Assembly: GCA_036397635.1 (NCBI GenBank)
Contig: DASWIP010000031.1
Location: 6,536 to 70,535 of the forward strand
Reading direction: 5' to 3'
DNA length: 64,000 bases
Source: Actinomycetota bacterium
GTDB taxonomy: Bacteria; Actinomycetota; AC-67
Shown: piece after piece, positions 20,700 through 38,082 of the stretch
Position numbering within the stretch: position 1 is the first letter of the stretch
Layout of the letters: every line of letters starts with the position of its first letter
Translations under genes and position numbers: made by a program
Notes under the pieces: generated by a model
Database searches by the model: none
What the model saw: the letters and a program-made list of their open reading frames with translations, nothing else
What the model was told of the DNA's origin: nothing

Positions 20700-20767
20700 A
20701 TCGTGCACCTCCCGCTTGCGCTCCCCGCAGCCTACGCCGGTGGGATCAGGTTGTCGCACCTCGTGCC

Positions 20768-23272: not shown

Positions 23273-24961
23273 TCAATGGGCTGGGCCCGCCCACTCGGGG
23301 AAGGGGCTCGGGGTGGGCGGTGCGACCTCCGTGAAGTAGCGGATCATCCAGTACGGCGTGAGGAAGTCCAGACCGGGCATGCGCCACGAGCGAGGTTGCC
23401 CGTTCCCCAATCCATCGAGAAGCCTCGGGCCGCGCTGCCATAGGAAGTCCCAGGGCGGGCGTACGGCGACCGGCAGAGGGTCCCTCGCCTTCCATCCTGG
23501 GCTCTGGCTCACCGGTGGAGCGTCGGGTTGTCCCGGCCGCCAGGCCACCGGACCGACCGGCGTGTACACGTGGTACTCGTCTTGCGGCACGCACTCGAGA
23601 TCGTTGCCGCAACGCGGGCTGTTGAGCACGAGCTCCCCTGTCGAGATCCGCGCACGGTACTGCAGCCACTCCCGCAGATGGGTGACGGCGGCGTCGAGGC
23701 GCCAGGCGTCGCCGGTGAGGGCGTACGTGATCGCCTCGAAATGGGCGTTGATGGCGTCGCGCGTTGACTTGTCCTCTACCGCGAAGCCGGCTGCCAGGAA
23801 CTCGCGCTCGGCCCCGGTTGTGGTGCGCAGAAGGTTGAACGCGTTCAGGTGGTGCAGGTTGTACTTGTAGTACGGCTCGTAATTCTCGAGGTTGTCGACC
23901 TCCATCGATGGTCCGAGTTCGGGACCCTGGTTCGCGAATTCCTCCAGCCACACCGCGTTCCACTTCTGCCGGTCCTCCTCAGTGCCCCCGTTGTTCAAGA
24001 CATGCCGGACGGCATTCGTCATGTTCAGCCGAGCCATCGGGACGTGAACGAAGAGGGGCGAGATGAAACCGTCGAAATCGTTCTTCGTCGTCACGTACCC
24101 ATGGGGACGGGGGTAGAACCAGCCGTACTTCAGCAGGAAGTTGCCCATCGAGAGGAGATCCTCGCGGATCTGATCGGCCAGCTCGGGCTCGTCCGGGCCG
24201 ACGAGGTCGAAGATCGTGAGCAAGCCGAAGGTCAGGCCCGCGTATGTGTCGCGGCTTGGCGAGGTTTCGCAGTAGTAGGTGCCACCGTCGCCCGAGGTCC
24301 AGGTGATCTCGTAGACGCGGTTGCTGTTGTTGTTCACCGGCTCTACCTCGTCGACCGTGGGTGGGTTGATCCCCATCTGGCCCAGCCCGACCGGTGTGCA
24401 GGTTCGCATGAGCATGCCGCGCTCGCCTTCGATGATCCCTCCACCGAAGTCGGCTGCGTGACGCTTCCCCGTCGGATCGGAGTTGACGCTCGGAGGGATC
24501 TTGAGGCCCCCGCGCCAATCCTCTGCGATGTTGATCTCGCGATGCTGGGCGACCAGGATCGTCTCGATCCTGCTCAAGGCCTCGTCTCGTTGTGCGGTCC
24601 AGAACGCCGTGTCATCACCGGCGGCGAGGTGGGCTTTCGCGACGGCGTAACGCATCGCCTCTGCGCCGGCGTAGACGCCGGTCCACTCTCCGCTATCACC
24701 CCACGACCATGTGCTCTCCACATCGCCAGGGATCTGTTCCGCGGTGCGGAAGTTGATCTCGACGATATGACCCTGCTGGAACGAGTCGTTGATCTTGGTC
24801 TCCAGGTCGACCATCGCGGCGGTGTCGGCGTCCGTCGTCAAGGGCCCTACCAACGGCGGCGTGGGCGGCGATGCGGGACTGGCCGAACCGGCGATCGACG
24901 TTGAGGCGAGAACGACTGCTACGAGCGCTCGTCTCATATGAGCAACATGTGCGCGATCCAT
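23273..24961 (-). CDS. Secreted protein, paralogue P1 of an unrecognised ~550-600 aa family (putative carbohydrate-active enzyme)
   Basis: GAAAGGAGAG SD before the ATG at 24961, then signal peptide ...MRRALVAVVLASTSIAGSA. Shared family motifs are FGGG(V/I)xGExGxLMRxCTP, YxCxxTSRDxYAG, ALKYLWNxPRPHG, PLFVYVPMARLNM, YYKYxLHH and LPYWM(I/L)RYYTE. The gene lies 31 nt downstream of P2. Confidence 0.75.
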   Translation of the reverse strand: MDRAHVAHMRRALVAVVLASTSIAGSASPASPPTPPLVGPLTTDADTAAMVDLETKINDSFQQGHIVEINFRTAEQIPGDVESTWSWGDSGEWTGVYAGAEAMRYAVAKAHLAAGDDTAFWTAQRDEALSRIETILVAQHREINIAEDWRGGLKIPPSVNSDPTGKRHAADFGGGIIEGERGMLMRTCTPVGLGQMGINPPTVDEVEPVNNNSNRVYEITWTSGDGGTYYCETSPSRDTYAGLTFGLLTIFDLVGPDEPELADQIREDLLSMGNFLLKYGWFYPRPHGYVTTKNDFDGFISPLFVHVPMARLNMTNAVRHVLNNGGTEEDRQKWNAVWLEEFANQGPELGPSMEVDNLENYEPYYKYNLHHLNAFNLLRTTTGAEREFLAAGFAVEDKSTRDAINAHFEAITYALTGDAWRLDAAVTHLREWLQYRARISTGELVLNSPRCGNDLECVPQDEYHVYTPVGPVAWRPGQPDAPPVSQSPGWKARDPLPVAVRPPWDFLWQRGPRLLDGLGNGQPRSWRMPGLDFLTPYWMIRYFTEVAPPTPSPFPEWAGPAH

Positions 24962-24992
24962 GGGCTCTCCTTTCGAAGGCACCGGCGGGCGT

Positions 24993-26627
24993 TCATCGGA
25001 AGATGGGACCGGGCCACGCCGGGAACGGCGAGAGCGCAGGCGGGGCGGCCTCGGTGTAGTAGCGGATCATCCAGTAGGGGAGGAGGAAGTCTGCGCCGGG
25101 TGATTCCCACCGCGGATCGTTCGGACCGCCGTCGAGGATCGTCGGATCCTTCTGCCACATGAAGTCCGCGGGGTATCGCAGAGCGACCGGAAGCGGATCC
25201 TGCGCGCGCTGCCGGTCGTCGAAGCCCGGCTGGGACACGATCAGGTCCTCCCCCTCCGGGAGCGGCTGGACCATGTCGACTTGATCGCGGGGGACGCAGG
25301 TCAGCGTGGTGCCGCATGCGGCGCTGTTGTTGACCACGTTCCCGTTGGCGTCGGCGTTGGCCCGATAGTCCAGCCACTGTCGATGATGCTCGACGGCGTC
25401 GTCCAGCCTCGGTTCTTCGCCGGTGAGCGCGAACGTGATCGCCTCGAACAAGGCGTTGACGTCGTCGCCGGTGGTGGCGTCCATGACCCCGAACGCCTGA
25501 GCGAACACCTCGCGCAGGACGGGATCCTGCTCGAGCCGGACCAGGTTGAATCCGGTGATGTGATGCAGGTGGTACTTGTAATACCCGCCGTGGGGCCCGG
25601 CCGCGTCGATCTCCATCGACGCCGCCAGCACTGGAACCTGCGAGGCCAGTTCCTCGGCCCACAGAGCCTCGTAGCGCGCCACGTGCTCGGCCGTGCCGGC
25701 TTCGCGCGCGGCGTGGCGCGCCACCTGAAGCATGTTCAGCCGCGCCATCGGGACGTAGACGAACAGCGGGGATACGAAGTTGTCGAGGTCGTTTCCGCCG
25801 AACAGCTCGGGGACGACGACCTCGCCGTGTGGCCGCGGCGTGTTCCACAGGTACTTCAGCGCGTAGTCGGTCATCGCCATCAGGTCGTGGCGGATCGTCT
25901 CGCGCATCGCGGGATCGTCGGCGGTGACAAGATCGAATGCCGTTGCGAGCCCGAACGTCACACCCGCGTAGGCGTCGCGGCTGGTCGCGTCGAGGCAGTA
26001 GTACTGCTCTCCATCCTCCCAGTCGAGAGGACCGACGAGCCGGTCCCGACCCGGGTCGCGACCGACGTTGAGAGGCGGGGGCGCGTCCACCGGAGTGCAG
26101 GCCCGGAAGAGGAGGCCGGCCTCGCCGGGGAACACGCCGCCACCGAAGTCGATGTATCCGTCATCGGTCGGCTCTCGATCATCGTTGACGCGCGGATCGA
26201 ACTCGGTCTGCCAGGCGGCCGAGATGTTGATCAACAGGTGGAACTGTTCCACCATCTGGTCGACACGTGACTTGGCCTGTGCCTTCTGGGCTTCCCAGAA
26301 CGAGGCGTCCTCACCCGCGGCAAGCTTCTGGGCCGCGAGCGCGTATCGGAACGCCTCCGCTGCGAGGTAGTTGCCGGTGTACAGGGCCGAGTCGTTCTCG
26401 CCAACCAGGGTGAGGATCTCGCCTTCCGCGCGCTCGGAGTCCACGTAGTACTGCTCGTGGATCTGCCCGTAGTGGAAATGGTCCAGGATGCGGTCCTCGA
26501 ACCAGGAGGCTGCGGTGAGGTCGGCGTCGGTGTCCAGCGGCGCGCCGAAGGGCTGCTCGGCGCGCGCAGGTGCGCTCGCGGCGAGGAGTCCGGTGATCGC
26601 GAGAACGATCGGCAACCTTGGGCGCAT
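24993..26627 (-). CDS. Secreted protein, paralogue P2 of the same family
   Basis: GGGAGGAG SD, signal peptide MRPRLPIVLAITGLLAASAPARA, and the same motif set as P1. Confidence 0.8.
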   Translation of the reverse strand: MRPRLPIVLAITGLLAASAPARAEQPFGAPLDTDADLTAASWFEDRILDHFHYGQIHEQYYVDSERAEGEILTLVGENDSALYTGNYLAAEAFRYALAAQKLAAGEDASFWEAQKAQAKSRVDQMVEQFHLLINISAAWQTEFDPRVNDDREPTDDGYIDFGGGVFPGEAGLLFRACTPVDAPPPLNVGRDPGRDRLVGPLDWEDGEQYYCLDATSRDAYAGVTFGLATAFDLVTADDPAMRETIRHDLMAMTDYALKYLWNTPRPHGEVVVPELFGGNDLDNFVSPLFVYVPMARLNMLQVARHAAREAGTAEHVARYEALWAEELASQVPVLAASMEIDAAGPHGGYYKYHLHHITGFNLVRLEQDPVLREVFAQAFGVMDATTGDDVNALFEAITFALTGEEPRLDDAVEHHRQWLDYRANADANGNVVNNSAACGTTLTCVPRDQVDMVQPLPEGEDLIVSQPGFDDRQRAQDPLPVALRYPADFMWQKDPTILDGGPNDPRWESPGADFLLPYWMIRYYTEAAPPALSPFPAWPGPIFR

Positions 26628-26645
26628 CCTGGGTTCTCCTCCCTG

Positions 26646-26680
26646 GGTTTGTACGGAAATCTTACGAAATACCCCGCGGG
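26646..26680. promoter_or_regulatory. Conserved AT-rich direct-repeat motif site A (TTTGTACGGAAATCTTACGAAATACC + CCGCGG), promoter region of P2-P1
   Basis: Shares 20/26 identity with site B. The 46 nt upstream of the P2 ATG align almost base-for-base with the 46 nt upstream of the P3 ATG (GGTATTTCGTAAGATTTCCGTACAAA vs GGTATTTGTAAGGTATTCGTACGAAT). Confidence 0.45.
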
Positions 26681-26714
26681 GAGGTTTCGACGCTGTGTGC
26701 CCCGCGTCCTGCCT

Positions 26715-28388
26715 CTAGAGCGCCGGCGGTTTGACCCCGAAGACACCGAAGCGGAAAGCGAAGCTCGTGTCGCCGGCGATCCCGAGCGCGCCACGGATGA
26801 AGGCTTCCCAGGGATCGATCCGTCCGAGCGTCAGCGCAGCGAGCGTTTCCGCGTCGCCGGACAGCTCGAGCCGGCGGTGACCCCCGCTCGCGGTGCGCGC
26901 GGCGCATCGGCCTTGGTCCACCACGAGTTCTCGGGCTACCTCGCGATCGCCGACCGTGATCCGGAAGCCGATCACGACGCTCATGCCCTCGGCGGCGTCG
27001 GCGTCGAAACCGGCGACCCATGCGCCGACGATGGCATCTGCGACGGCATCGGGATCCTCGTCCTCGAGGATGGATGAGGCGGCGTCCGCTCCGGCGTCGG
27101 CCACCCGCTGCATGATCGGTGGTAACGCAGGCCGCTTCGGGGCGGCTCGCGACCGCGTGGGACGTCCGCTGAGCCAGTCGCATACCGACACGATCCGATC
27201 CCAGTCGCGTGCATGAGCGAGGTGCGCGAGGTAGGAGGCGGCTGCTCCGAGGCGGGTCGCGTCACCGTCGCCGAGTGCCGACGGATCCGCCAGCTCCCGG
27301 GCGAAGGTCTGGTGGACGGAATCTGCTGCCTCGCGAGCCCGGGACGGCCAGGGTGGAACCCGGGCGTCCGGGGGCGGAAGCCTCGGGACGGGCACAGTCC
27401 GATCTCTTTGGTACCAGTAGGCGACCGAAGACCAGTCATCGTCCCGATCGTTGGCGTGGCCGCGCTCGATGCTCGCGTGGAGTGAGCGGTCGAACCTGAT
27501 GGGATCTGCGACGTGGAAGCGGTAGAGGTGCGAGAAACCGCTCCAGTCCGGACGGTCGGTGACCGGCTGTCCGTACCATGGGTGTGAGAACTGTTCCGCC
27601 GGACTCCACGCTGTGCCCGCCCAGTCCTCCGTCCCCGTGCCGTGGATCGCCGGTGGCCATCGGTCGTCGTCGATGAAGATCATCTCGTCGCCTTCCCCAT
27701 ACCAACCGCCGTCGGTGGAGTGCACGTACAGGAACGCGCCGAGATAGTGACCCGCTCCCCGGATGTCGGCGAAAACGTGGTTGCCGTCCCGGGATGCGTG
27801 AGGCTGAGGGCCGTACACGCCGGGCGAGTCCTCCTCGCGACGAGCGGGCGTCCGGTTCCACCAGGCGTGGAAGCGCTCCGCGCGCGGCTGTTCCGGCCAG
27901 GACTCGTGATCGATGTGGAGATAGATCGCGAGCAGCGGAAGATCCGACTGATTCTCCACCTCGAGCCGGAAGCCGTCGGCGAACGGCATCTCGAACCAGG
28001 CGTGATACGAGCGCGCATCGCGCGGCGCGACCGAGAGCAGCTCGGAGGCGAACTCTCCCGCCACGCAGTTGCCGGCACCGAAGAAGTCGCCGAAGGGAAC
28101 CTCGACGCTCGGGGTTTCCTCTCCATCCCAGTACGCGCGCAGCACGAGCGATCGGCCCCAGAGCAGGTCGGGGGCGAGTGCGGTGGCCCACAGGTGCGTG
28201 ATCCGTCCCGCCCCTTCGGCTTGGGCGACGTTCTGAGTCGCGCCGGGGGGGACGAACGATGAATCGTTGTTCCCGCCGGTACGATCCCACGTCGATACGC
28301 GCGCGCGGCGCGCGGCCGAGGGGATGGCGTCGCCGGTCACCAGGCCGGACAGATCGCGCGCGTTGAGCCTGATCTCTCGTTCCGTCAT
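26715..28388 (-). CDS. DUF2961 (GH172-family glycoside hydrolase-like) protein fused to C-terminal SCP2 sterol-carrier-like domain
   Basis: DUF2961 signature VSTWDRTGGNNDS... The C-terminal ~110 aa (GFRITVGDREVARELVV...LELSGDAETLAALTLGRIDPWEAFIRGALGIAGD) is SCP2-like. The ATG at 28388 overlaps the P3 stop (ATGA). Confidence 0.8.
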   Translation of the reverse strand: MTEREIRLNARDLSGLVTGDAIPSAARRARVSTWDRTGGNNDSSFVPPGATQNVAQAEGAGRITHLWATALAPDLLWGRSLVLRAYWDGEETPSVEVPFGDFFGAGNCVAGEFASELLSVAPRDARSYHAWFEMPFADGFRLEVENQSDLPLLAIYLHIDHESWPEQPRAERFHAWWNRTPARREEDSPGVYGPQPHASRDGNHVFADIRGAGHYLGAFLYVHSTDGGWYGEGDEMIFIDDDRWPPAIHGTGTEDWAGTAWSPAEQFSHPWYGQPVTDRPDWSGFSHLYRFHVADPIRFDRSLHASIERGHANDRDDDWSSVAYWYQRDRTVPVPRLPPPDARVPPWPSRAREAADSVHQTFARELADPSALGDGDATRLGAAASYLAHLAHARDWDRIVSVCDWLSGRPTRSRAAPKRPALPPIMQRVADAGADAASSILEDEDPDAVADAIVGAWVAGFDADAAEGMSVVIGFRITVGDREVARELVVDQGRCAARTASGGHRRLELSGDAETLAALTLGRIDPWEAFIRGALGIAGDTSFAFRFGVFGVKPPAL

Positions 28389-30169
28389 TCGAACCGAGGG
28401 CCCGGCCACGCGGGGAGCGGGCTCTCCGGGCCGGGAACCTCGACCTCGCTGTAGTACCGGAGCATCCAGTACGTCGCGAGGAAGTCGATGCTGGGACCCC
28501 GCCACGGCACCGCGTGATCCCCGTTGATGATCGTCGGATCCTTCTGCCACAGGAAGTCCGCGAGCCGGCGGACCCCGACCGGCAACGGATCCTTCGCTCG
28601 GCGCGCGCTGTCGGTGCCGGGCCGGAACGGGGTGACCACCTCGTCGCCGCCGGGCACCGGCAGGACCATGTCCACCTGGTCCTTCGGCGCGCACTCCAGG
28701 GGTCGCTCCTGGATCGGAGCGTTCTCACCCGGATCTTCGGTGATGTCGCAACGCCCGGTGTGCAGGAACGGTGTGTTCCCCGCGCGCGCCGCCTCCTCGT
28801 GGAAGGCGTAGTAGTCCAGCCAGTCGCGGTGGTACCCGACCGCCTCGTCGAGCCGGGCCACCTCGCCGGTCAACGCGTAGATCATCGCCTCGAAGAACGG
28901 GTTGCCGTCGTCGGTGAGGCTCGCGTCGAGAACGGACATGGCTCGCTCGAACTCTTCTCGTACCACCGGATCCGGCTCGAGCCTTATGAGGTTGAAGAAG
29001 GACACCAGATGCAGCTGGTACTTGTAGTAGGCGTTGTGTGGGCTCATCGAGTCGATCACCATCGAGTCGAGCAGCGATCCGGTCCCGACGGTGTTCGCAA
29101 CCTCTTCGAGCCAGAGGACCTCGTAGCGCTGCTTTCCTTCGGCGTGGCCGATGAGGTTGGCGGCGTGGCGCGCGGTCTGGAGCATGTGCAACCGGTGCAG
29201 CGGAACCTGGATGAACAGCGGGCTGAACGGCCCGTTGAGGTCGTTGTCGGTGATCGGGTTGGCGACCCGCCCGTGCGGACGCGGCTGGTTCCACAGGTAC
29301 TTCAACGCGTAGTCGGTCATGGCCATCAGGTCGTGCGCGAGCGTCGCGCGCAACTCGGGGTTCTCCTCGGTCGCCAGGTAGTCGAGCGCGACCGCGAGAC
29401 CGAAGATCGTCCCCATGTAGGAGTCGCGACTGGTGTTCTGGACGCAGTACCAGTTCCGGCCGTCTTCCCACCGAAGCGGCCCGATGACGTAGGGCGTGGG
29501 GGCGTAGTTGTAGCGGATGTCGGTGTAGGCGGGATCCGCGTCCTCCGGGGTGCACGTACGCATAAGCAGGCCCTTCTCGCCTGGGATGACGCCCCCGCCG
29601 TAGTCCAGCCAGCCGGACTCGTCCGGCGTCTTGCTCAAGTCGATCTGCGGGTCGAGCTCGGTCTCCCAGTACTGCGCGATGTTCACAAGGATGTGGTAGT
29701 AACCGACGATTTCAGCGGCGCGCGCGCGAGCTTCGTCGCGCTGCCCGCGCCAGAACGCTACTGCTGCGGAATCGCTCGGTACATCGTCGAGCGGGTCGAC
29801 GCCGAGTAGCACGAGCTGCGCTTTGGCTTGGGCGTACCGCCACGACTGCGCCGCGAGGTATACGCCGGTGTAGTTACCGGAGTCGCCCTCCCCTTCCATG
29901 CGCACCGGCTGGGCGTCCGGGTCCAGGTGCGGCCACGCGTCGAACAGCAGCGGGACGATCATGCCCTCGAAGGTGTGTTCGGGGATCAAGGATTCGAAGC
30001 GAAGGGCCGCGTCGAGGTCTCCGGCGGTGTCGAGCGGACCGGTGTCGTCACTGATCGCCTCGAAAGGCTCCGCCTGCCCGATGGGCGGATTGACGGCGAG
30101 CAGCGCGAGCACGAGTCCGAGGAGCGGGGCGATCCCCCGACGCATGACACCGTTCCCGCGTGATCCCAT
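28385..30169 (-). CDS. Secreted protein, paralogue P3 of the same family
   Basis: AAGGGGG SD before the ATG at 30169 and signal peptide MGSRGNGVMRRGIAPLLGLVLALLAVNPPIGQA. Same motif set as P1/P2, and translationally coupled to the DUF2961 gene. Confidence 0.75.
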   Translation of the reverse strand: MGSRGNGVMRRGIAPLLGLVLALLAVNPPIGQAEPFEAISDDTGPLDTAGDLDAALRFESLIPEHTFEGMIVPLLFDAWPHLDPDAQPVRMEGEGDSGNYTGVYLAAQSWRYAQAKAQLVLLGVDPLDDVPSDSAAVAFWRGQRDEARARAAEIVGYYHILVNIAQYWETELDPQIDLSKTPDESGWLDYGGGVIPGEKGLLMRTCTPEDADPAYTDIRYNYAPTPYVIGPLRWEDGRNWYCVQNTSRDSYMGTIFGLAVALDYLATEENPELRATLAHDLMAMTDYALKYLWNQPRPHGRVANPITDNDLNGPFSPLFIQVPLHRLHMLQTARHAANLIGHAEGKQRYEVLWLEEVANTVGTGSLLDSMVIDSMSPHNAYYKYQLHLVSFFNLIRLEPDPVVREEFERAMSVLDASLTDDGNPFFEAMIYALTGEVARLDEAVGYHRDWLDYYAFHEEAARAGNTPFLHTGRCDITEDPGENAPIQERPLECAPKDQVDMVLPVPGGDEVVTPFRPGTDSARRAKDPLPVGVRRLADFLWQKDPTIINGDHAVPWRGPSIDFLATYWMLRYYSEVEVPGPESPLPAWPGPRFE

Positions 30170-30193
30170 CTCGGCCCCCTTGACGCACCCCGA

Positions 30194-30226
30194 TTCGTAC
30201 GAATACCTTACAAATACCGTGAACGG
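30194..30226. promoter_or_regulatory. Conserved motif site C (TTCGTACGAATACCTTACAAATACC + CCGTGAACGG palindrome) in the 49 bp divergent P3/P4 intergenic region
   Basis: Same architecture and absolute orientation as sites A, B, D and E. It ends at the candidate GTG start of P4, so P4 is probably leaderless. Confidence 0.45.
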
Positions 30227-31850
30227 GACACAAGCCCTCATCTGGCGCGCGGCCGCAGCCGTGCTGTGCGGCGCTTTGCTCACGCCCGTGGGAGCGTCCG
30301 CCTCATCGCCGCTCACCCCCGACGACCAGGCCGCGGCTCTGCTGCTCGAGGACCGCATCGCGGACAACCTGTGGTACGGCCAGGTCTTCGAGGCGACCTA
30401 CCGCACGCCCGATCGCACGCCGGGTGATCTCGCGAGCGTGCACAACTTCGGTGACTCGGCCCTGTGGACCGGCACCTATCTCGCAGCGGAGGCGTTCCGG
30501 TACGCGACCGCGCGCACCAAGATCGCCACCGGCGAGGACGTGGCTTTCTGGGGCGAGCAGCAGGCGGAGGCGAAGGCCCGCATCGATCAGATAGTCGCCA
30601 AGTACCACCTGCTGATCAACATCTCGAAGAACTGGGATTACGAGCTCGAGCCCTCGCTGGACCCGCCGTCGTTCGGCGGCGGCGTGTTCCGCGGCGAGCC
30701 CGGGTACCTGATGCGCGCCTGCATCCCCACCGACGCCCCCTCGTGGGCGACCTGGGGCGAGCCGCGCGGCCCCCGGGTGTTCGGGCCCTTGGACTGGGAC
30801 GACGGCAACCAGTACTGGTGCGAGGACGCGACCAGCCGCGACGCCTACGCCGGCACGACCTTCGGTCTTCTGACCGCGTTCGACCTCGTCGGGCCCGACG
30901 ACGACGAGCTGCGCGCGCAGATCCGTGACGACGTCATCACGATGACGACCTTCGCCCTGAAGTACCTGTGGAACACGCCGCGGCCGCACGGCAACATCTC
31001 GCTGCCGCCGGAGGACCTCGAGGAGTACAGCCCCGTCGACGTCTGGGGGCACGACTTCGAGAATTTCATCTCGCCGTTGTTCGTCTACGTCCCGATGGCG
31101 AGGCTCAACATGACCCAGATCGCTCGCCACGTCGCCGATGAGGCGGGCACGCCCGAGCAGGCGGCCTTCTGGGAAGCGGTCTGGGCAGAGGAGCTGGCGT
31201 CGCAGGGCTCGTTGCTCGCGACGTCGATGGAGATCGATTCCTTCCAGCCCAACGACGGGTACTACAAGTTCAACCTGCATCACCTCACCGGCTACACCAC
31301 GATCAGGCTCGAGCCGGATCCGGCAGTGCGCGAGCTGCTTCGCCAGGCGTTCAGCGTCATGGACAACACGACTCGCGACGACGTCAATGCGCACTTCGAG
31401 ACCATCACCTACGCGCTGACCGGCGAGGCCGGCCGTCGTGACCTAGCGATCGAGCACCTCCGGGAGTGGCTCGACTATCGCGCGCGCATCGACCTGGGCG
31501 TGCCGACCAACAACAGCCCCGGCTGCGATGTCGAGTTCGAATGTGTGGCGCGGGACTCGCTCGAGCTGGTCGTGCGCGCGGCGGACGGATCGGAAGCCGC
31601 CGCGGTCACGCTCTTCCCCGGGACCGACGCCCGGCTGCGCGCGCGCCGCCCCCTGCCGGTGCCGCTCCGTCCCCCGACCGATTTCCTGTGGCAGCGGCCG
31701 CCGACGCAGCTCGAGGGCTTCGAAGGGGCGACGCGCCAGGCACCGGGCATCGACTACCTGCTGCCGTACTGGATGCTTCGGTACTACACGGACGTGGCGC
31801 CGCCGGGCTTGTCGCCGTTCCCGCCTTACCCTGCGCCGGCGCACGCATGA
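30219..31850 (+). CDS. Secreted protein, paralogue P4 of the same family (start uncertain: GTG 30219 or TTG 30180)
   Basis: The 5' part of track ORF 29898..31850 overlaps the divergent P3 and is not credible. From the GTG at 30219 the N-terminus MNGTQALIWRAAAAVLCGALLTPVGASA is a plausible signal peptide. Same motif set as P1-P3. Confidence 0.65.
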   Translation: MNGTQALIWRAAAAVLCGALLTPVGASASSPLTPDDQAAALLLEDRIADNLWYGQVFEATYRTPDRTPGDLASVHNFGDSALWTGTYLAAEAFRYATARTKIATGEDVAFWGEQQAEAKARIDQIVAKYHLLINISKNWDYELEPSLDPPSFGGGVFRGEPGYLMRACIPTDAPSWATWGEPRGPRVFGPLDWDDGNQYWCEDATSRDAYAGTTFGLLTAFDLVGPDDDELRAQIRDDVITMTTFALKYLWNTPRPHGNISLPPEDLEEYSPVDVWGHDFENFISPLFVYVPMARLNMTQIARHVADEAGTPEQAAFWEAVWAEELASQGSLLATSMEIDSFQPNDGYYKFNLHHLTGYTTIRLEPDPAVRELLRQAFSVMDNTTRDDVNAHFETITYALTGEAGRRDLAIEHLREWLDYRARIDLGVPTNNSPGCDVEFECVARDSLELVVRAADGSEAAAVTLFPGTDARLRARRPLPVPLRPPTDFLWQRPPTQLEGFEGATRQAPGIDYLLPYWMLRYYTDVAPPGLSPFPPYPAPAHA

Positions 31851-31884: not shown

Positions 31885-32934
31885 ATGAGCGACGCGGAGA
31901 CCCCCGCAGCCATGAACACCGAGCAGATCCCCTCGTCCCGCCCTTACGCGCTGTCCGCGCGCGGGGTAGGTGTGAGTTTCGGAGGCTTGCGCGCGCTCGA
32001 CGGCGTGGACCTCGACGTCGAGCCCGGCGCCATCATCGGTGTGATCGGGCCCAACGGCGCCGGCAAGACCACGCTGTTCGATGCGATCAGCGGGTTCATC
32101 CCATGCGAGGGGAGGATGTGGGTCAACGGCGTCCAGATCAGCGGCCTCCCACCGCACCGCCGCGCCGCGGCCGGGCTCGGCCGCTCGTTCCAGGACGCGC
32201 GCTTGTTCCACGCCATGACGGTGCTGGACACCCTGCGGGTCGCCTGCGAGCTGCACGTACGCGCTTCAGGCGTCGTTGGCATCGTGCTCGGACTGCCCGG
32301 CGCGCGCGGCGCCGAGCGCGCTGCGACCGCGCGCGCGCTGGAGCTTGTCGAGCTGTTCGGGCTCGGCGGATTCCGCGACAAGCTCATCCGTGAGCTGTCC
32401 ACGGGGACACGCCGGATCGTGGACCTCGCGTGCGTGCTCGCCCACGGCCCGTCGGTCGTGATGCTCGATGAGCCGTCGTCGGGGATCGCGCAGCGGGAGA
32501 CCGAAGCCCTGGGTCCGTTGCTGCGCCGGATCCGCGACCGCACCGGGTGCGCGATGCTGCTGATCGAGCACGACATGCCGTTGCTTCTGCACCTGGCCGA
32601 GCGCGTCTACGCGCTCGAGACCGGCCGCGTGATCGCATCGGGGGATCCCGAGGATGTCGTGCACGACCCCGAGGTGATCCGCTCGTACCTCGGTGCCGAC
32701 GCCGCCGCGATCAACCGGTCGGGCGCGCTGCCCGATGCCGCGCCGAAGCCTCGGGCTACCCGAGCCCGCAGGCCAGCGAAGGCCGCGCGGTCCACGACAT
32801 CGAACGCCGAAGCCACGACATCGAACGCCGAGGCCAAGATGAAGAAGGTGCGCGCACGCGCAGCCGCCACCAAGAAGGTCACCAAGAGAGCCACGAAGAA
32901 GGCGCCCACCACGAAGGGCAGCCCCAGCGTATGA
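31885..32934 (+). CDS. ABC transporter ATP-binding protein, LivG-like, with C-terminal Lys/Ala/Thr-rich histone-H1/HupB-like tail
   Basis: Walker A GPNGAGKTT, signature LSTGTRR, Walker B VVMLDEPSSG. The tail is ...KMKKVRARAAATKKVTKRATKKAPTTKG. A 21 bp tandem duplication (STTSNAEA x2) lies at 32789-32830. Confidence 0.85.
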   Translation: MSDAETPAAMNTEQIPSSRPYALSARGVGVSFGGLRALDGVDLDVEPGAIIGVIGPNGAGKTTLFDAISGFIPCEGRMWVNGVQISGLPPHRRAAAGLGRSFQDARLFHAMTVLDTLRVACELHVRASGVVGIVLGLPGARGAERAATARALELVELFGLGGFRDKLIRELSTGTRRIVDLACVLAHGPSVVMLDEPSSGIAQRETEALGPLLRRIRDRTGCAMLLIEHDMPLLLHLAERVYALETGRVIASGDPEDVVHDPEVIRSYLGADAAAINRSGALPDAAPKPRATRARRPAKAARSTTSNAEATTSNAEAKMKKVRARAAATKKVTKRATKKAPTTKGSPSV

Positions 32935-35102
32935 CCGCGACGCCGTCACGCGGCCGCGTGCTGCTCAGAGATCAACCCGCCGTGGGCGTGGTCGTCTCCG
33001 ACGGGCTGCACGTGACGCGCACCGCCGCCGACGGCACGTTCGCGCTTCGCGGGTTCGGGCCGTTCGCGATCGTGACGTGTCCGACCGGATGGACCACCGA
33101 CGGGTGGCACCTTCCCGCCGGCGACGACCTCAGGTTCGAGCTGCATCCCGATGAGCAGCCGGTCCCGTTCACTTTCGTCCAGGTCACCGACCTGCACGTG
33201 TCGCTGGGCGATCCCGCGTTCGGCGACGGTGCGGGCGACGCGACCTTCTACCAGGCCGACGGCGAGTGGCGCGAGCGGATCGTCACCACGCCGGCCGTCC
33301 TCGCATCGCTGCTGGAAGAGATCGCGCGCGAGCAGCCCGGCGCTTGGATCGTCGCCACCGGCGACCTGACGAACACCGGCGCGGAAGACGAGTACGAGGC
33401 GTACCGTGCAACGGTCGCGGCGAGCGGGCTGCACGTCGTGTCCATCCCAGGCAATCACGACCTCATGCCTCAGCGAGGCGATGACGAGGGAGGCGCCGAC
33501 ACGCTGTACGCGGCGGTGACGGCGCGGTACGAGGGCTACCTCGGGCCGCGGTATTTCTCGTTCGACCACGGAGGGCTGCATTTCATCGTGATCGACTGGT
33601 TCACGCACCTGTTGGGGGTCGATCGCCAGGCGCAGGAGACCTGGGTCGCCGCCGACCTCGCGGTGGCAGGCGACACCCCCGTGGTGATGCTGACCCACGA
33701 TCAGATGCGAGCCGAGTTCTACGCGGGGCTCGCGCGCGCGCCGGTCGCCAGCTTCTCCGGCCACTGGCACACGAGTCGCGTCGTCGTGCACGCGGGGACG
33801 ACCCACTACAACAGCGCCCCGGCCACGTTCGGCGGCTTGGACTACACGCCGGCGAGCTACCGGGTCGCCACGTGGGACGGCGCGAGGCTGCGGGTGCGGA
33901 CCGTCGCGCGCGGCGACGGCGCTTCGAGTGGCGCGACGTTCCGGAGCGAACCCGCGCCGGATGGCGTGTGCGCCTGGACGGCCCGCCTGGACGGCGGCGT
34001 GCACCTGGGGCCGCCGGTGGTGCACGGCGACGCGGTGCTTGCGACGTCGAAGCGGGAGGACGAACCCGGCGGGTCGATCGCGTGTTTCGATGCGGCCGAC
34101 GGCACGCTGCGGTGGCGGGTCGCCCTGAGCGCCGGGGTGAAGGCTGCACCGCTTGTCGTCGGCGACCTCGCGGTCGCAACCGCGGTCACCGGCGAGACCG
34201 TGTGCGTCGAGATCGGCACCGGGCGGGAGCGGTGGCGGACCGAGATAGCCGATCCGTTGCTGCTGTGGACCTACCTGCGCCCGGCCTCCGACGGCGCGCG
34301 GGTGTTCGTCGGGGACGTGGCGCGGTTCGTCGCGCTCGACCTCGTCGACGGCTCGGTCGCCTGGGCCCGCGAGGACCTCGGGAAGCGTGAGAACATGACC
34401 GCGCACGCCCACCCGGTCGTCGTCGACGGCACGCTGCTGGTGTCCTTCACCGCTCAGATCCCGGACCTGTGGGGCCTGGATCCGGCGACGGGCGCCACGC
34501 GCTGGCCCGCCGGCGTCGCCGCGCGCAGCGTCTACCAAGGGTCGTCGTCGGAGATCGTGATCCACCTTCCCCGGACGCCGGTCGCCGCGCTGGCCGCCGA
34601 TCCGGATGGAAAGGACGTCTACGTTGTTCGGCTCGGGTCTGTGCTCGAGCGCGTCCGCGCCGCCGACGGCGCGAGTGTCTGGACGGCGCAGTTCCTCGGC
34701 TGGTTCAACCCGGCGCGCCCGGCCGTGACCGAAGACGCGGTGCTGGCGTCCGCCGGGACGGGGACCGTGTTCTGCTTCGAGCGCAGGAGCGGCGCTCTTC
34801 GGTGGCGAACCGAGGTGGCGCGGGACGCGCCGGTCGCGCTGGGGCCGTACCGGGCCTCGGGGGCGGCGCTGCTCGCCGGGCCGCTGGTCGTCGGCGACGT
34901 GGCTGTGGTGGCCACGGGCGACGGGCGTCTGGTAGGTCTGGCCTGCGAGGACGGGCGGGAGGTCGGGATGATCGACGTTGGCGTTCCGGTGACGAGCCGC
35001 GCCGCGATCGCCGGCGAACATGTCGTGGTGGCGGCGCTGGACGGTACGGTACGGGCGCTGCCCTTGGCGGCCGTCGGGGTCGGCCGATTGTCGGCACCCT
35101 AG
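32931..35102 (+). CDS. Calcineurin-like metallophosphoesterase fused to PQQ/BamB-like beta-propeller repeats
   Basis: The ATG at 32931 overlaps the LivG stop (ATGA). Motifs GDLTNTG and GNHD mark the N-terminal metallophosphoesterase half. The C-terminal ~400 aa carry repeated ...GxLxA(L/F)DxxxGxxxW propeller motifs. Track ORF 32946..35840 on the opposite strand is an artefact. Confidence 0.75.
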   Translation: MTATPSRGRVLLRDQPAVGVVVSDGLHVTRTAADGTFALRGFGPFAIVTCPTGWTTDGWHLPAGDDLRFELHPDEQPVPFTFVQVTDLHVSLGDPAFGDGAGDATFYQADGEWRERIVTTPAVLASLLEEIAREQPGAWIVATGDLTNTGAEDEYEAYRATVAASGLHVVSIPGNHDLMPQRGDDEGGADTLYAAVTARYEGYLGPRYFSFDHGGLHFIVIDWFTHLLGVDRQAQETWVAADLAVAGDTPVVMLTHDQMRAEFYAGLARAPVASFSGHWHTSRVVVHAGTTHYNSAPATFGGLDYTPASYRVATWDGARLRVRTVARGDGASSGATFRSEPAPDGVCAWTARLDGGVHLGPPVVHGDAVLATSKREDEPGGSIACFDAADGTLRWRVALSAGVKAAPLVVGDLAVATAVTGETVCVEIGTGRERWRTEIADPLLLWTYLRPASDGARVFVGDVARFVALDLVDGSVAWAREDLGKRENMTAHAHPVVVDGTLLVSFTAQIPDLWGLDPATGATRWPAGVAARSVYQGSSSEIVIHLPRTPVAALAADPDGKDVYVVRLGSVLERVRAADGASVWTAQFLGWFNPARPAVTEDAVLASAGTGTVFCFERRSGALRWRTEVARDAPVALGPYRASGAALLAGPLVVGDVAVVATGDGRLVGLACEDGREVGMIDVGVPVTSRAAIAGEHVVVAALDGTVRALPLAAVGVGRLSAP

Positions 35103-35217: not shown

Positions 35218-36816
35218 ATGAATGACCGACTGGATCGAGTCTTCAAGCATCCCATATTCAACCACCCGCAGACGCTCCGGGTCCTGACGATCGCCATCTC
35301 CGTCACCCTCGTCAGCGGCGTGGCGATGATCGGTCCCGTCGGCGGTCGCGGCGATGATCCCCGCGACAACGAAGGGGCGTTCGTCGTCGACGACGACGTT
35401 ATCCCGGGGACGACGGCCAGCCTGTCGCCCGGCGCGACCCCATCGCTGAGCGGATCCGGGACGCCGGTTACACCGGGGCAAGGATCGACACCCGGCTTCA
35501 TCATCCCAGGTGGCGGGAAGCCATCGATCCCGCCCTCGAAGATCCCGAGCTTCGGACTTCGCACCCAAGGCATCACCGCCGACGCGGTGAAGATCGGCAT
35601 CTCGTACAACGTCGCTTCGTGCGGCGACGCGGCGGTGCTCGAAGCGATGCTGGGGCCCACGACGGCGGGTGATCTGGAGAAGTCGATCAACACGTTCGCG
35701 CGCCACATCAACGACACGGGCGGGCTCGGCGGGAAGAAGTACCAGCCGATCATCGTGGACGATGGCGGTGCCGGCTGCCCGGCGAAGAACATCTCGGCAG
35801 CGATCAAGATGGCAGAAGAGGAAAAGGTCTTCATGGCCATCCCGGGGCTGCACGTCGAATCCGACTACATCATGAAGCACTACAAGATCCCCGTGTTCGG
35901 GGGCCGCGAGGATCCCGACTCGCTCGGCCGGTACGGCCCCAACGGCCTGCAGATCCTCGAACCTCTCGAGCCGACATTCGAGGCGTGGGCGAGCTTCGGC
36001 CGGTACTACCTCAACGGACAGGATAAGAAGCCGTGCCTGATCCGGATCGAAAGCGGCGCGGCCGGCGACTTCGACACCGCGGAGCGGATCCTCAAGCAGA
36101 AGATGTCGAAGTACGGGCTGACGTTCGCCGACCGGATCTGGGTGTTCAAAGACGACGTTTCGACCGCGCAGCAACAGTCCAATTCGATCGCGGCTGCGGC
36201 CAAGGGCAAAGGTTGCGATCAGGTGTACTACCTCGCAGGCAACCCGATCGGCCTGATCTTCTTCACCGACGCTGCCACCCAGAACGGGTGGTTCCCGACC
36301 TGGACCTTCACCAGCATGGTGATCCTCACCGACGACGACGCGATCGGGAACCTGATGGATCCCGTGCAGTGGGAGAACGCCATCGGCCTTTCCTACCGCG
36401 TGCCGGCCGGGCAGCATCGCGATGAGGGGAATTGCAAGCGGATCTACGAGCGCTACAACGGCAACGACGGGCAGAGCGATTCCGCCGCGGTGAAGCTGGC
36501 GTGCGCGACGATCCTGCCCACCGCGGAGATGATGCGCCGTGCGATCCAACTCACCGGCACGCTGACCGCCGATACGCTGTTGCTCGGCGCCGACGCGATC
36601 GACAACGACTTCTTCTTCGACGCGACCGTCCCCCTCGACTGGCGGTACCCGAACATCAACGGTCCGTTCAAGACCCGCGGTTTCAGCCACTACACCGTTG
36701 TGGACTGGAGCTCGTCGCAGAAGCGCTACACGTTCCCGAAGTACCCCTGTTACTACAAGGTCTTCGAGGCCCAGAACGGCGGCTGCGAGAACCTCACGAA
36801 GTACTACAAGAAGTAG
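35218..36816 (+). CDS. ABC transporter substrate-binding protein (type-1 periplasmic binding fold, LivJ/amide-binding family), membrane-anchored
   Basis: GGGAGG SD, N-terminal TM anchor, Pro/Gly/Ser/Thr-rich linker, then a PBP1 domain. Confidence 0.8.
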   Translation: MNDRLDRVFKHPIFNHPQTLRVLTIAISVTLVSGVAMIGPVGGRGDDPRDNEGAFVVDDDVIPGTTASLSPGATPSLSGSGTPVTPGQGSTPGFIIPGGGKPSIPPSKIPSFGLRTQGITADAVKIGISYNVASCGDAAVLEAMLGPTTAGDLEKSINTFARHINDTGGLGGKKYQPIIVDDGGAGCPAKNISAAIKMAEEEKVFMAIPGLHVESDYIMKHYKIPVFGGREDPDSLGRYGPNGLQILEPLEPTFEAWASFGRYYLNGQDKKPCLIRIESGAAGDFDTAERILKQKMSKYGLTFADRIWVFKDDVSTAQQQSNSIAAAAKGKGCDQVYYLAGNPIGLIFFTDAATQNGWFPTWTFTSMVILTDDDAIGNLMDPVQWENAIGLSYRVPAGQHRDEGNCKRIYERYNGNDGQSDSAAVKLACATILPTAEMMRRAIQLTGTLTADTLLLGADAIDNDFFFDATVPLDWRYPNINGPFKTRGFSHYTVVDWSSSQKRYTFPKYPCYYKVFEAQNGGCENLTKYYKK

Positions 36817-36819: not shown

Positions 36820-38082
36820 ATGAGCGAGCGTCTCGCCCTCGACGGAGGAACCCCGGTCCGCCGCCAGCCCCTGTCGATGGGCAAGGGTGTCGCGTTCCTC
36901 GGCGACGAGGAGCGGGCGGCGGTGATGGCGGTGCTGGAGAGCCGCAGCCTGTTCCGCTACTACGGGCCCGACCTGCAGGAGACCGTCGCCGGGTTCGAAC
37001 GAGACGCAGGGGCGTATCTGGGTGCCGCGCACGCCGTCGCGACGTCCAGCGGGACGGCGGCGCTTCGTGTCGCGCTTGCCGCGCTGGGGATCGGGTGCGG
37101 TGACGAGGTCATCGTCCCGGCGTTCACCTTCATCGCGACGGTCAATGCGGTCGTGCTCGCCGGTGCCGTCCCGGTTTTCGCCGAGGTCGACGAGACGCTG
37201 GGCCTCGACGCTGCGGCAGTCGAGGCGGGCGTGACCGAACGGACCGTGGCGGTCATCCCCGTCCATCTCGAGAACGTCGCCTGCGACATGGACCCCCTGC
37301 TGAAGATCGCCGAGCAGCGCTCACTCGCCGTCCTCGAAGACACGGCCCAGTCGATGGGCGCGACGTATCACGGGCGCGCGCTCGGCACGCTCGGCGACAT
37401 CGGCGCGTTCTCGCTCCAGCTCGAGAAGAACATCACCGCGGGCGAGGGCGGCCTCATCGTCACCGACGACGAGGCGCTGTGGATCCGGGCTGCTCGGTAT
37501 CAGGATCAGGGCGGTCAGTTCGTGACCGGCCACGGCGGCAGCCGCGGTGCGGAACTCGACGAGCCGTTCGTCGGGGAGAATCTTCGCATGACCGAGATCG
37601 CCGGCGCGATCGCCGGCGCGCAGCTCACGAAGCTTCCGTCGATCCTCGGTGCGATGCGCCGGAACAGAGCGGCCATCGAGGCTGCGGTCGGTGTGATCGA
37701 TGGGATGCAGGCGCGCCGCAGTCCCGATCCCGACGGCGACGGCGCGTCGAGCATCACGTGGTTCCTCCCCGACGCCGCGCTCGCCGCCCGGTTCGCCGAC
37801 GCCTTGCGTGCCGAGGGGATCCCATCGGCGCAGATCTACGATGGCCGGCCCGTGTATGCGACGCCATCCATCCTCGGCCGGCGGACCGCGAGCGGGAAGG
37901 GTGGTCCCTGGAACTGCGCCGAGCATCCCACCGACGTCGTGTACCGGCTCGGGATGTGCCCGCGAACCGAGGCCCTCGTCGCGCGCTCGGCATCCGTCGG
38001 GATCGGCGCGCGCTGGAACGAAGACGATGCTCGTGACGTCGCGGCGGCGGTGCAGAAGGTCGCGTCGGTGCTCCTCGGATGA
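36820..38082 (+). CDS. DegT/DnrJ/EryC1/StrS-family PLP-dependent aminotransferase
   Basis: AHAVATSSGTAALRVALAALGIGCGDEVIVPAFTFIATVNAV and the family-typical length and pattern through the gene. Confidence 0.9.
   Translation: MSERLALDGGTPVRRQPLSMGKGVAFLGDEERAAVMAVLESRSLFRYYGPDLQETVAGFERDAGAYLGAAHAVATSSGTAALRVALAALGIGCGDEVIVPAFTFIATVNAVVLAGAVPVFAEVDETLGLDAAAVEAGVTERTVAVIPVHLENVACDMDPLLKIAEQRSLAVLEDTAQSMGATYHGRALGTLGDIGAFSLQLEKNITAGEGGLIVTDDEALWIRAARYQDQGGQFVTGHGGSRGAELDEPFVGENLRMTEIAGAIAGAQLTKLPSILGAMRRNRAAIEAAVGVIDGMQARRSPDPDGDGASSITWFLPDAALAARFADALRAEGIPSAQIYDGRPVYATPSILGRRTASGKGGPWNCAEHPTDVVYRLGMCPRTEALVARSASVGIGARWNEDDARDVAAAVQKVASVLLG

Follow-up and report, generated by a model that had tools for sequence, protein, structure and literature searches.

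A family of predicted secreted six-hairpin proteins, candidate glycan-cleaving enzymes, in a conserved amino-sugar-type locus of Actinomycetota

The window analysed here, a stretch of 64,000 nucleotides from an uncultured soil bacterium of the Actinomycetota, carries four related genes (P1 to P4) grouped around a gene with a DUF2961/GH172 domain, which raises the question what these four proteins are and on which substrate they and their neighbours might act. All four open reading frames are present at the positions given in a preliminary description of this DNA, as follows.

P1: 23273..24961, minus strand, predicted six-hairpin family member, predicted secreted, 562 aa
P2: 24993..26627, minus strand, predicted six-hairpin family member, predicted secreted, 544 aa; the protein that was modelled
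GH172-SCP2: 26715..28388, minus strand, GH172 (DUF2961) with a C-terminal SCP2 domain, 557 aa, without signal peptide
P3: 28385..30169, minus strand, predicted six-hairpin family member, predicted secreted, 594 aa
P4: 30219..31850, plus strand, predicted six-hairpin family member, predicted secreted, 543 aa from a GTG start

Third-position GC is high (0.82-0.90) in the reading frames of P1-P4. P4 is the first gene of a plus-strand transporter block; in the JGI gene call for the identical contig it starts at a TTG at 30180, 13 codons upstream of the GTG. P1 begins 31 nt 3' of the P2 stop codon and has its own Shine-Dalgarno sequence, and because of this arrangement the two genes are probably co-transcribed. 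The ATG of the GH172-SCP2 gene overlaps the P3 stop codon as ATGA.

Paralogy, spread and database searches

P1-P4 can be aligned over their full length (about 540 aa), with 41-49% identity to P1, a mean column identity of 61% and more than 100 invariant columns, among which fall all the collinear motifs listed previously. They are true paralogues, with a similarity far beyond chance. A hydrophobic, signal-peptide-like N-terminus is found in all four, as had been claimed, and in 119 of 129 full-length homologues, and the proteins are accordingly predicted to be secreted. Each contains exactly four conserved cysteines (P4 has an extra one in the signal-peptide region), and we propose that two disulfides stabilise the P proteins.

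The family is described in none of the databases searched, in line with its initial designation as unrecognised. P1-P4 have no match in Pfam even at E<=1, and the few matches that they have in NCBIfam (E 0.05-0.09, 10-13 bits) are far under the family cut-offs of 540-1496 bits. PDB sequences are matched neither by single sequence (phmmer) nor by profile, and none of the 240 matches listed has an entry in the precomputed Pfam column. The P-domain region of ten distant relatives also lacks a Pfam match; two of the ten match Pfam only in fused PHP/DUF3604 and Ig-like domains. Proteins of 1337 aa and 1509 aa combine the P domain with such domains, as is typical of exoenzymes that degrade polymers.

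The family is large, with at least 1309 representatives of 50%-identity clusters among soil and groundwater metagenome proteins, and its genome matches all come from metagenome-assembled genomes (MAGs). These belong to Actinomycetota, including Mycobacteriales, Frankiaceae, Acidimicrobiales and Nitriliruptorales, and also to Acidobacteriota and Gemmatimonadota; MAGs of Mycobacteriales and Frankiaceae carry several P paralogues per genome. Each of P1-P4 has orthologues in other MAGs at 55-77% identity, whereas the paralogues share only 35-54% with each other; they are old, anciently diverged subfamilies gathered in one place, and the term "fourfold local amplification" used at first is misleading. 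A distant and much larger branch of short proteins (about 410 aa, 25-30% identity), found in Acidobacteriota and Gemmatimonadota, retains the GDS, SRD, YxKFNL, NAxF, DFLWQ and PYWMxRY motifs; no carbohydrate-related neighbours were seen in the three contexts of this branch examined in these two phyla. Some members from Actinomycetota are solitary as well (e.g. that of locus L001). Both observations speak against the glycan-cleaving role proposed below.

Predicted fold and conserved residues

The model of P2 (pLDDT 93.1, pTM 0.92) has 12 long helices, and a model of the short branch reaches a pLDDT of 91.2. According to these models P1-P4 would be single-domain (alpha/alpha)6 six-hairpin toroids, with 12 helices in six inner-outer hairpins; a toroid of this kind had been named beforehand as a possibility, and the confident predictions bear it out. 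The actinobacterial proteins have beta-hairpin insertions (P2 residues 143-212 and 444-475). Only short beta-hairpins follow the toroid, and the short branch stops about 20 residues past the last helix.

An alignment of 56 sequences, which otherwise share only 45-69% identity with P2, has about 35 invariant columns, including several Asp, Arg, Lys and Gln residues (D79, R94, R175, S216-R217-D218, D248, R265, K351, D488, Q492, D513 and R522) and many aromatic residues. In the P2 model D79, D218, K351, N391 and D513 lie at the N-termini of every second helix; helices 2, 4, 12 and 10 begin at, or a few residues from, the invariant D79, D218 and D513 and the near-invariant E395, respectively. D79 of the GDS motif and D218 of the SRD motif, both located where an inner helix begins, are candidate catalytic residues.

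A Foldseek search with the P2 model gave nothing significant. Among the closest systems are the GH76 alpha-1,6-mannanases (BT2949, PDB 4v1r) and the related methylmannose-polysaccharide hydrolase MmpH (7qsj), with identities of only 7-12%, compared to which the P proteins of actinobacteria add the beta-hairpin insertions and the two putative disulfides. Membership of GH76 was rejected, as there is no Pfam Glyco_hydro_76 match at E<=1, no GH76 chain among PDB sequences by phmmer or profile, and only a Foldseek E>0.02. GH76 enzymes use an adjacent Asp-Asp catalytic pair; no DD dipeptide occurs among the invariant columns. The putative exported protein YPO2471 of Yersinia pestis (PDB 7tem; 10-11% identity, no sequence-level relationship) gives no functional clue, since its PDB entry says only that much. 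Other six-hairpin glycosidases among the closest systems belong to GH8, GH9 (including the exo-beta-D-glucosaminidase 5dgq), GH15, GH88 and GH105. Toroid lyases of families PL8, PL15 and PL21 normally bear a large C-terminal antiparallel beta-sandwich domain; it is missing from the P models, and membership of this type was rejected. The same applies to class II terpene cyclases, as their DxDD motif is absent as a conserved feature, the sole match being a non-conserved DWDD in P4.

The wider locus, its synteny and its regulation

The strong recurrent partner of the P genes is a set of genes of about 20 kb, which in the window runs on to 52.3 kb. The unit to be considered spans about 29 kb (23.3-52.3 kb) rather than 8.6 kb. 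It contains the following further features; the NCBIfam matches of its genes are all far under the family cut-offs.

31972..32748, plus strand, LivG-like ABC ATPase (ABC_tran and BCA_ABC_TP_C)
32750..35102, plus strand, Metallophos phosphoesterase fused to a PQQ-type beta-propeller; start codon approximate
35218..36816, plus strand, Peripla_BP_6 solute-binding protein
36820..38082, plus strand, DegT/DnrJ/EryC1-type sugar aminotransferase
38079..39053, plus strand, GFO/IDH/MocA oxidoreductase; best NCBIfam match inositol 2-dehydrogenase, under the family cut-off
39058..41052, plus strand, fused BPD_transp_2 permease, 664 aa
41049..43091, plus strand, MFS_1 domain fused to an ABC ATPase, 680 aa
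43088..43840, plus strand, HAD-IIA phosphatase
43824..44800, minus strand, Amidohydro_1 protein (NagA-like); start approximate, open frame to 45374
45588..46886, plus strand, GH84-type beta-N-acetylglucosaminidase, without signal peptide
46903..47571, minus strand, short ROK protein of the kinase type
47583..48869, minus strand, ROK regulator with N-terminal helix-turn-helix; best NCBIfam match NagC, under the family cut-off
48896..50002, minus strand, Ceramidase_alk-like putative amidase, 369 aa; 46% identity to a gene of locus L089 with a weak PF04734 match
49999..50904, minus strand, alpha/beta hydrolase
50952..52277, minus strand, ADP-ribosylglycohydrolase-family protein
26651..26665, no strand, palindrome copy 1, upstream of P2, overlapping a TAAGAT -10-like hexamer
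30197..30211, no strand, palindrome copy 2, in the 49-nt gap between the divergent P3 and P4, overlapping -10-like hexamers on both strands
45560..45574, no strand, palindrome copy 3, abutting a CATAAT -10-like hexamer 8 nt before the GH84 ATG

This gene set recurs beside P members in many MAGs of Actinomycetota. Among 45 loci of at least 8 kb, where all counts are lower bounds because flanks extend to at most 10 kb, transporter genes recur (LivG 22, permease 20, MFS-ABC fusion 17, Peripla_BP_6 14), together with genes for ADP-ribosylglycohydrolase-family proteins (15), ROK regulators (13), alpha/beta hydrolases (12), ROK kinases (11), SIS proteins (10), ceramidase-like proteins (9), GH84 (7) and NagA (6). 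Canonical NagA, NagB and SIS-domain genes are present in loci L089 and L093, and uronate-catabolic genes were not seen in the conserved locus. The utilisation-type locus suggested earlier is recognisable: it has genes for import, for regulation and for cytoplasmic glycosidases, and its components are conserved in synteny. The gene context does not point to the substrates then put forward for screening (arabinan, levan, inulin and difructose anhydride); the GH84, NagA, NagB, ROK kinase and NagC-like regulator genes point to GlcNAc or another amino sugar.

Importers of the Liv/HAAT type (Peripla_BP_6) usually carry amino acids, urea and amides, rather than oligosaccharides. The importer found here is of this type, which is a point against a glycan substrate.

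The domain assignment of the central gene is clear, as the full-length DUF2961/GH172 domain is matched (PF11175, E 2.4e-73, model positions 2-235 of 235), SCP2 is found over its gathering score (E 1.1e-4), and a protein identical to the gene product has precomputed GH172_1st, GH172_dom and GH172_2nd matches. GH172 was found within 10 kb of a P member on only two other contigs, contrary to the partnership initially envisaged. With three of the 45 loci, two of them overlapping, against 20-22 for the Liv-type ABC genes, 15 for the ADP-ribosylglycohydrolase family and 13 for the ROK regulator, the link is weak across genomes, and GH172 is not a conserved partner of the P family. According to two reports, known GH172 activities include those of exo-alpha-D-arabinofuranosidases acting on mycobacterial arabinan (PMC10115798, PMC10509167).

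The homology noted between the regions upstream of P2 and P3 is confirmed by a common GGTATTT(C)GTAAGrTwTyCGTAC, and contains an imperfect palindrome of 15 bp, GTAMGR-N3-YCKTAC. It is present in three copies, compared to 0.06 expected, and each immediately precedes a gene of the locus; it was not found in other MAGs, which speaks against the proposal made below.

Proposed function and alternative explanations

Taken as a whole, the data are best explained, with a likelihood somewhat above even, by P1-P4 being new secreted six-hairpin glycan-cleaving enzymes of a ROK-controlled locus for utilisation of a GlcNAc-glycoconjugate. For this uncharacterised family, glycan catalysis is suggested by predicted fold and gene context, and we infer both the substrate class and the identity of the palindrome-binding protein. 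P1-P4, most likely glycoside hydrolases, would start the breakdown of the glycoconjugate outside the cell, each subfamily possibly cutting a different linkage. The Peripla_BP_6 protein would capture the released fragments for the neighbouring Liv-type ABC importer, made up of LivG-like ATPase, fused permease and MFS-ATPase fusion, and enzymes without signal peptides would dismantle them inside the cell. There GH172-SCP2 could act on furanosyl residues, GH84 could remove beta-GlcNAc, the ADP-ribosylglycohydrolase-family protein may take part, and the ceramidase-like amidase and alpha/beta hydrolase may strip acyl groups. The freed sugars would pass to the ROK kinase, the NagA-like amidohydrolase, the DegT/GFO pair and the HAD phosphatase, and the NagC-like ROK protein would serve as repressor of the gene set through the palindrome overlapping the -10 regions of P2, P3/P4 and GH84.

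Such a system would resemble Gram-positive polysaccharide-utilisation loci and NagC/ROK regulons for GlcNAc/chitosan in its putative secreted depolymerases, binding-protein-dependent ABC importer, cytoplasmic exo-glycosidases, sugar kinase, NagA, NagB, putative ROK repressor and palindromic candidate site overlapping promoters. It differs in its importer, which is of the Liv/HAAT type with a fused BPD_transp_2 permease and one MFS-fused ATPase, whereas the known systems usually have a CUT1-type sugar system, and in its additional ADP-ribosylglycohydrolase-family, ceramidase-like, Metallophos-PQQ and DegT/GFO genes.

The P proteins might be carbohydrate-active without being hydrolases, namely lyases acting on polymers of uronates or amino sugars, or secreted epimerases or isomerases. 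We consider this rather unlikely, as the models lack the beta-sandwich of the toroid lyases, the conserved locus shows no uronate-catabolic genes, and enzymes of the AGE family are cytoplasmic whereas the P proteins appear to be exported. A similarly low probability is given to the P proteins being autolysins or turnover enzymes of the producer's own envelope, with a locus that recycles fragments and does not forage on foreign polymers. The several paralogues in Mycobacteriales and Frankiaceae, the arabinan-active enzymes among known GH172s, and the presence of GlcNAc salvage genes and phosphoesterases would agree with such a role. However, members are found in Acidimicrobiales, Nitriliruptorales, Acidobacteriota and Gemmatimonadota as well, in which arabinogalactan would not be expected, and the locus, in which a ROK protein of the repressor type is combined with an importer that depends on a binding protein, is organised like an inducible catabolic regulon.

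That the toroid binds or transforms an extracellular lipid, terpenoid or amide-linked compound, for instance of a hopanoid- or sphingolipid-like nature, seems very improbable: besides the missing DxDD motif, polar or charged and aromatic side chains predominate among the invariant residues, a composition expected of sugar-binding sites and not of a hydrophobic cavity, and a sugar-related type is common to regulator, kinase, GH84, NagA and NagB. About as little can be said for non-catalytic secreted binding or scaffold proteins that share just the six-hairpin fold, as the invariant Asp, Arg, Lys and Gln columns, and several motifs kept at 25-30% identity, represent conservation typical of active sites.

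The P family is therefore a good candidate for a new carbohydrate-active enzyme family. A more specific proposal, which we regard as tentative and rather less probable than its negation, is that it founds a new GH (or lyase) family whose members number thousands in uncultured Actinomycetota, Acidobacteriota and Gemmatimonadota from soil, and that its four subfamilies in Actinomycetota open a lipid- and/or phosphodiester-linked, GlcNAc-containing cell-envelope glycoconjugate in an undescribed ROK-controlled system, comprising the Liv-type ABC importer with MFS-ATPase fusion, GH172-SCP2, GH84, the ADP-ribosylglycohydrolase-family enzyme and the ceramidase-like amidase. With four subfamilies in a single locus, a set of proteins is at hand for expression and for the screening of substrates. 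Should the P proteins prove to cleave glycans, they would constitute a new CAZy family that annotation currently overlooks in at least 1309 clusters (50% identity), and for this reason uncultured Actinomycetota, Acidobacteriota and Gemmatimonadota would be credited with less carbon- and nitrogen-cycling capacity than they have. The conserved 20-30 kb locus, with its unusual importer, ADP-ribosylglycohydrolase-family enzyme, short ceramidase-like amidase and GH172-SCP2 fusion, would then represent an undescribed route for the use of amino-sugar glycoconjugates, possibly from bacterial cell-wall necromass.

Four paralogous secreted proteins

Four paralogous secreted proteins, P1 to P4, are encoded in the window (GC content about 68%), together with a DUF2961/GH172 gene lying between P2 and P3:

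23273-24961, minus strand: P1
24993-26627, minus strand: P2
26715-28388, minus strand: GH172-SCP2, a DUF2961/GH172 protein with a C-terminal SCP2 domain
28385-30169, minus strand: P3
30219-31850, plus strand: P4

Each of the four P genes is an open reading frame in frame with high third-position GC. The proteins align from end to end with more than 100 invariant columns, which contain every motif listed in the preliminary description and bear out the paralogy; identity to P1 is 41-49%, and mean column identity is 61%. P2 starts at ATG 26627, with the ribosome-binding site GGGAGGAG ahead of it, and P1 starts 31 nt past the P2 stop, preceded by GAAAGGAGAG. P3 starts at ATG 30169. The most likely start of P4 is GTG 30219; the JGI gene call on an identical contig begins at TTG 30180, 13 codons earlier. 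The gene between P2 and P3 encodes a full-length DUF2961/GH172 protein (Pfam, E 2.4e-73) with the SCP2 domain at its C-terminus (E 1.1e-4, above the gathering score), and it overlaps P3 in the sequence ATGA, which holds its ATG and the P3 stop.

Hydrophobic, signal-peptide-like N-termini were found in P1-P4, as previously noted, and in 119 of 129 full-length homologues. An N-terminus check found no signal peptide in the GH172, GH84 and ADP-ribosylglycohydrolase-family proteins of the locus. Every P protein has exactly four cysteines, excluding one in the signal-peptide region of P4, and their conservation across the whole family suggests two disulfides.

The cluster had been taken for a fourfold local amplification. 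Among themselves, the paralogues share only 35-54% identity, against about 51-77% with orthologues in other MAGs (52-64% for P1, 53-68% for P2, 62-77% for P3 and 51-74% for P4). A recent tandem amplification is therefore rejected, as P1-P4 are less alike than each is to its orthologues. In several MAGs, three to five P copies are scattered over the genome. P1-P4 are four old subfamilies, and the co-location of all four is a peculiarity of this genome.

Family membership and predicted fold

Searches of Pfam, NCBIfam and PDB sequences place P1-P4 in no family, in agreement with their initial description as unrecognised. Pfam gave no match even at E<=1, and the handful from NCBIfam (E 0.05-0.09) were at chance level and far under the cut-offs. 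All PDB sequences were also searched, with phmmer (single sequence) and with a 56-sequence profile, and nothing but chance matches to antibody CDRs came up. Among 5.8 billion proteins, 177 relatives of P2 were found, all from metagenomes or MAGs of Actinomycetota, without any Pfam domain and called 'hypothetical protein' wherever a source gives a name. When 1.84 billion cluster representatives were searched exhaustively with a profile, 1309 of them matched at E<=1e-3; at E<=1e-10 the number was 607. No Pfam domain was found in the P-domain region of ten distant representatives, two of which are long proteins (P0135 and P0136; 1337 and 1509 aa, the latter at 10001-14530 of comparison locus L089) with an N-terminal P domain followed by PHP/DUF3604 and Ig-like domains.

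A scan of 185,579 species, one genome each, identified 80 P-family loci, all from MAGs. Close members occur in Frankiaceae, Mycobacteriales, Acidimicrobiales, Nitriliruptorales and unclassified Actinomycetota, and relatives with 24-31% identity in Gemmatimonadaceae, Bryobacteraceae and one halobacterial MAG. A short form of about 410 aa belongs to the same family (hhalign probability 100%, E 8e-67) and keeps the motifs GDS, SRD, YxKFNL, NAxF, DFLWQ and PYWMxRY; at least 2789 matches, all unnamed, make it commoner than the actinobacterial form.

The AlphaFold2 model of P2, built from the family alignment (pLDDT 93.1, pTM 0.92), consists of twelve long helices with beta-hairpin insertions, and the short-branch model is of equal confidence (pLDDT 91.2). 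The predicted models form a six-hairpin (alpha/alpha)6 toroid, a fold that the preliminary description had named as a possibility. Foldseek found no PDB match at E<=1e-3; the structural matches of both models are at 8-12% identity, the majority being glycoside hydrolases, polysaccharide lyases or sugar epimerases and a minority terpene cyclases. A terpene cyclase was rejected because the conserved DxDD motif is absent from the P family, and a toroid lyase with a beta-sandwich because the models lack the lyase-type beta-sandwich domain.

In six-hairpin enzymes, the pocket residues lie at the starts of every second helix. The invariant residues D79, D218, K351 and D513 and the near-invariant N391 (P2 model and alignment) are found at the start of every second helix, and E395, also near-invariant, lies a few residues inside one of them, from which we infer candidate catalytic residues. 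The P proteins share the fold of six-hairpin glycosidases and would share their mode of action, but no sequence-based test places them in GH76 or any other existing family. They are predicted six-hairpin toroids, yet no existing family can claim them, and a literature search for a matching new GH family returned nothing relevant. The description that suits them best is a new family in a known fold class, without match in PDB, Pfam (2025) or NCBIfam (June 2026). 'New' is judged here against these three resources; a very recent CAZy family is possible, but the lack of any match in the three and the name 'hypothetical protein' in all sources that give one speak against it.

A conserved gene neighbourhood

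A much larger conserved unit has the P genes at its edge, and its genes are also found around P-family members in many other Actinomycetota MAGs. The gene order after P4 was derived from Pfam scans and from tblastn against related loci.

Genes following P4, in order, with occurrence among 45 P-family loci of at least 8 kb in brackets (flanks of at most 10 kb, so that the counts are lower bounds)
31972-32748: LivG-like ATPase (22/45)
32750-35102, plus strand: Metallophos-PQQ propeller
35218-36816: Peripla_BP_6 binding protein (14/45)
next: DegT aminotransferase
next: GFO/IDH/MocA oxidoreductase
next: fused BPD_transp_2 permease (20/45)
41049-43091, plus strand: MFS_1-ABC ATPase fusion (17/45)
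next: HAD phosphatase
next, minus strand: Amidohydro_1, NagA-like (6/45)
next: GH84 (7/45)
next: short ROK kinase-like protein (11/45)
47583-48869: ROK regulator, nearest NagC (13/45)
next: ceramidase-like protein (9/45)
next: alpha/beta hydrolase (12/45)
50952-52277, minus strand: ADP-ribosylglycohydrolase-family protein (15/45)

SIS genes were found in 10 of the 45 loci. No equivalog cut-off was reached in NCBIfam by ten genes of the locus, the ADP-ribosylglycohydrolase-family gene included. The common thread of the locus is GlcNAc or amino-sugar catabolism, and in L089 the 1509-aa P-PHP fusion lies amid ROK kinase, GH84, ROK regulator, NagA and SIS genes. Conserved neighbours were absent in the three contexts examined for the short branch in Acidobacteriota, and a literature search for this gene combination found nothing relevant.

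GH172 was found in 3 of the 45 loci, two of these being overlapping pieces of one contig. It was rejected as the defining partner of the P genes, as it lies near them on only two other contigs. SCP2-bearing GH172 proteins form a small clade, about 35 clusters among 4229 GH172 matches. A clade member in another comparison locus, L093, is followed by genes for an alpha/beta hydrolase, a ceramidase-like protein, two ROK proteins, GH84, NagB and NagA, and that of L094 adjoins a ceramidase-like gene. This context and the low count near P genes indicate that GH172-SCP2 belongs to the same functional set and is an occasional P neighbour. The GH172/DUF2961 literature search returned only known GH172 activities.

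Several neighbours have uncommon architectures. The 680-aa protein at 41049-43091 has an N-terminal MFS_1 transporter domain fused to a C-terminal ABC ATPase, which is unusual for the second ATPase of a Liv-type importer; it recurs in L004, L088, L089 and at least 17 of the loci counted above, and is conserved at 51-71% identity in many Actinomycetota MAGs, adjoining the fused LivH/LivM-type permease. Phosphoesterases are also repeatedly associated with the family: the fusion of Metallophos with a PQQ-type beta-propeller adjoins P-family members in six loci, and the two long P-domain proteins contain the PHP/DUF3604 module. The ADP-ribosylglycohydrolase-family gene lies directly beside P4-like members in L012, L015, L017, L020 and L047. 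Between a P4-like member and this gene, L088 encodes a 549-aa protein (11649-13298, plus strand; also in L013) without a Pfam domain or a tblastn match to the P family, which may be another uncharacterised component.

Other genes flank the unit. Alkyl sulfatases usually end in an SCP2 domain. Next to the P cluster, where SCP2 is fused to GH172, the gene at 20256-22063 (minus strand) encodes a metallo-beta-lactamase that has an alkyl-sulfatase dimerisation domain but no SCP2. The 3' end of this gene overlaps the start of a gene for an SRPBCC (Polyketide_cyc2) lipid-binding protein, likewise next to the cluster. Between the alkyl-sulfatase-like gene and P1 lies a gene (22290-23225, plus strand; also in the identical JGI and Logan contigs) for a 311-aa protein with a hydrophobic N-terminal segment and a Hint_2 (intein/hedgehog-type) domain. 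Upstream of the locus lies a regulatory block (14041-19337, minus strand) that encodes a large regulator of SARP/STAND type (BTAD/NB-ARC/TPR) along with a methyltransferase, a zf-HC2 anti-sigma factor and an ECF sigma factor. The protein encoded at 12721-13992 (minus strand) joins a cyclic-nucleotide-binding domain to collagen triple-helix repeats. The conserved locus is followed directly by a gene for a full-length DUF6351 tannase-like protein (52665-55016, plus strand; E 3e-214). Three plus-strand ORFs with coding-type GC3 (58160-61114, 61610-62335 and 62384-63646; 984, 241 and 420 aa) have no Pfam match at E<=1e-5.

Putative regulation and role of the locus

The reported similarity between the P2 and P3 upstream regions is centred on a 15-bp imperfect palindrome, GTAMGR-N3-YCKTAC, and a third copy (45560-45574) lies directly ahead of the GH84 start. 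For the pattern derived from the first two copies, the expectation in shuffled sequence is 0.06 matches; three matches occurred in 0 of 100 shuffles, compared with 4 of 100 for a looser 15-bp consensus allowing one mismatch. The P2 copy overlaps the -10-like hexamer TAAGAT, and the copy in the P3/P4 gap overlaps TAAGGT on the P3 side and TACCTT on the P4 side; the GH84 copy abuts, but does not overlap, CATAAT. The starts of P4 and GH84 lie no more than about 10 nt from their own hexamers, which suggests leaderless or near-leaderless transcripts. The search of other loci matched the palindrome in contig copies from the same organism but in no other MAG, and when 22-36 kb was scanned with promoter and terminator consensus patterns, no signal exceeded the shuffled background. 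The arrangement fits a single putative repressor for P genes and GlcNAc genes together, a role for which the NagC-like ROK protein would be the first candidate.

We propose that the P enzymes, once exported, cleave a GlcNAc-containing glycoconjugate outside the cell, the fragments of which would be taken up by the Liv-type importer. In the cytoplasm, GH172-SCP2, GH84, the ADP-ribosylglycohydrolase-family enzyme, an amidase and an esterase would dismantle them, and the ROK kinase, NagA, DegT/GFO and HAD phosphatase would channel the sugars into metabolism. The SCP2, ceramidase-like and esterase components and the phosphoesterase links hint, speculatively, at a substrate with acyl and phosphodiester groups, perhaps as in cell-envelope polymers. 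The P cluster first described is real, with the emphasis shifting from partners of GH172 to a conserved locus for amino-sugar glycoconjugate utilisation, in which the P proteins would be the secreted entry enzymes.
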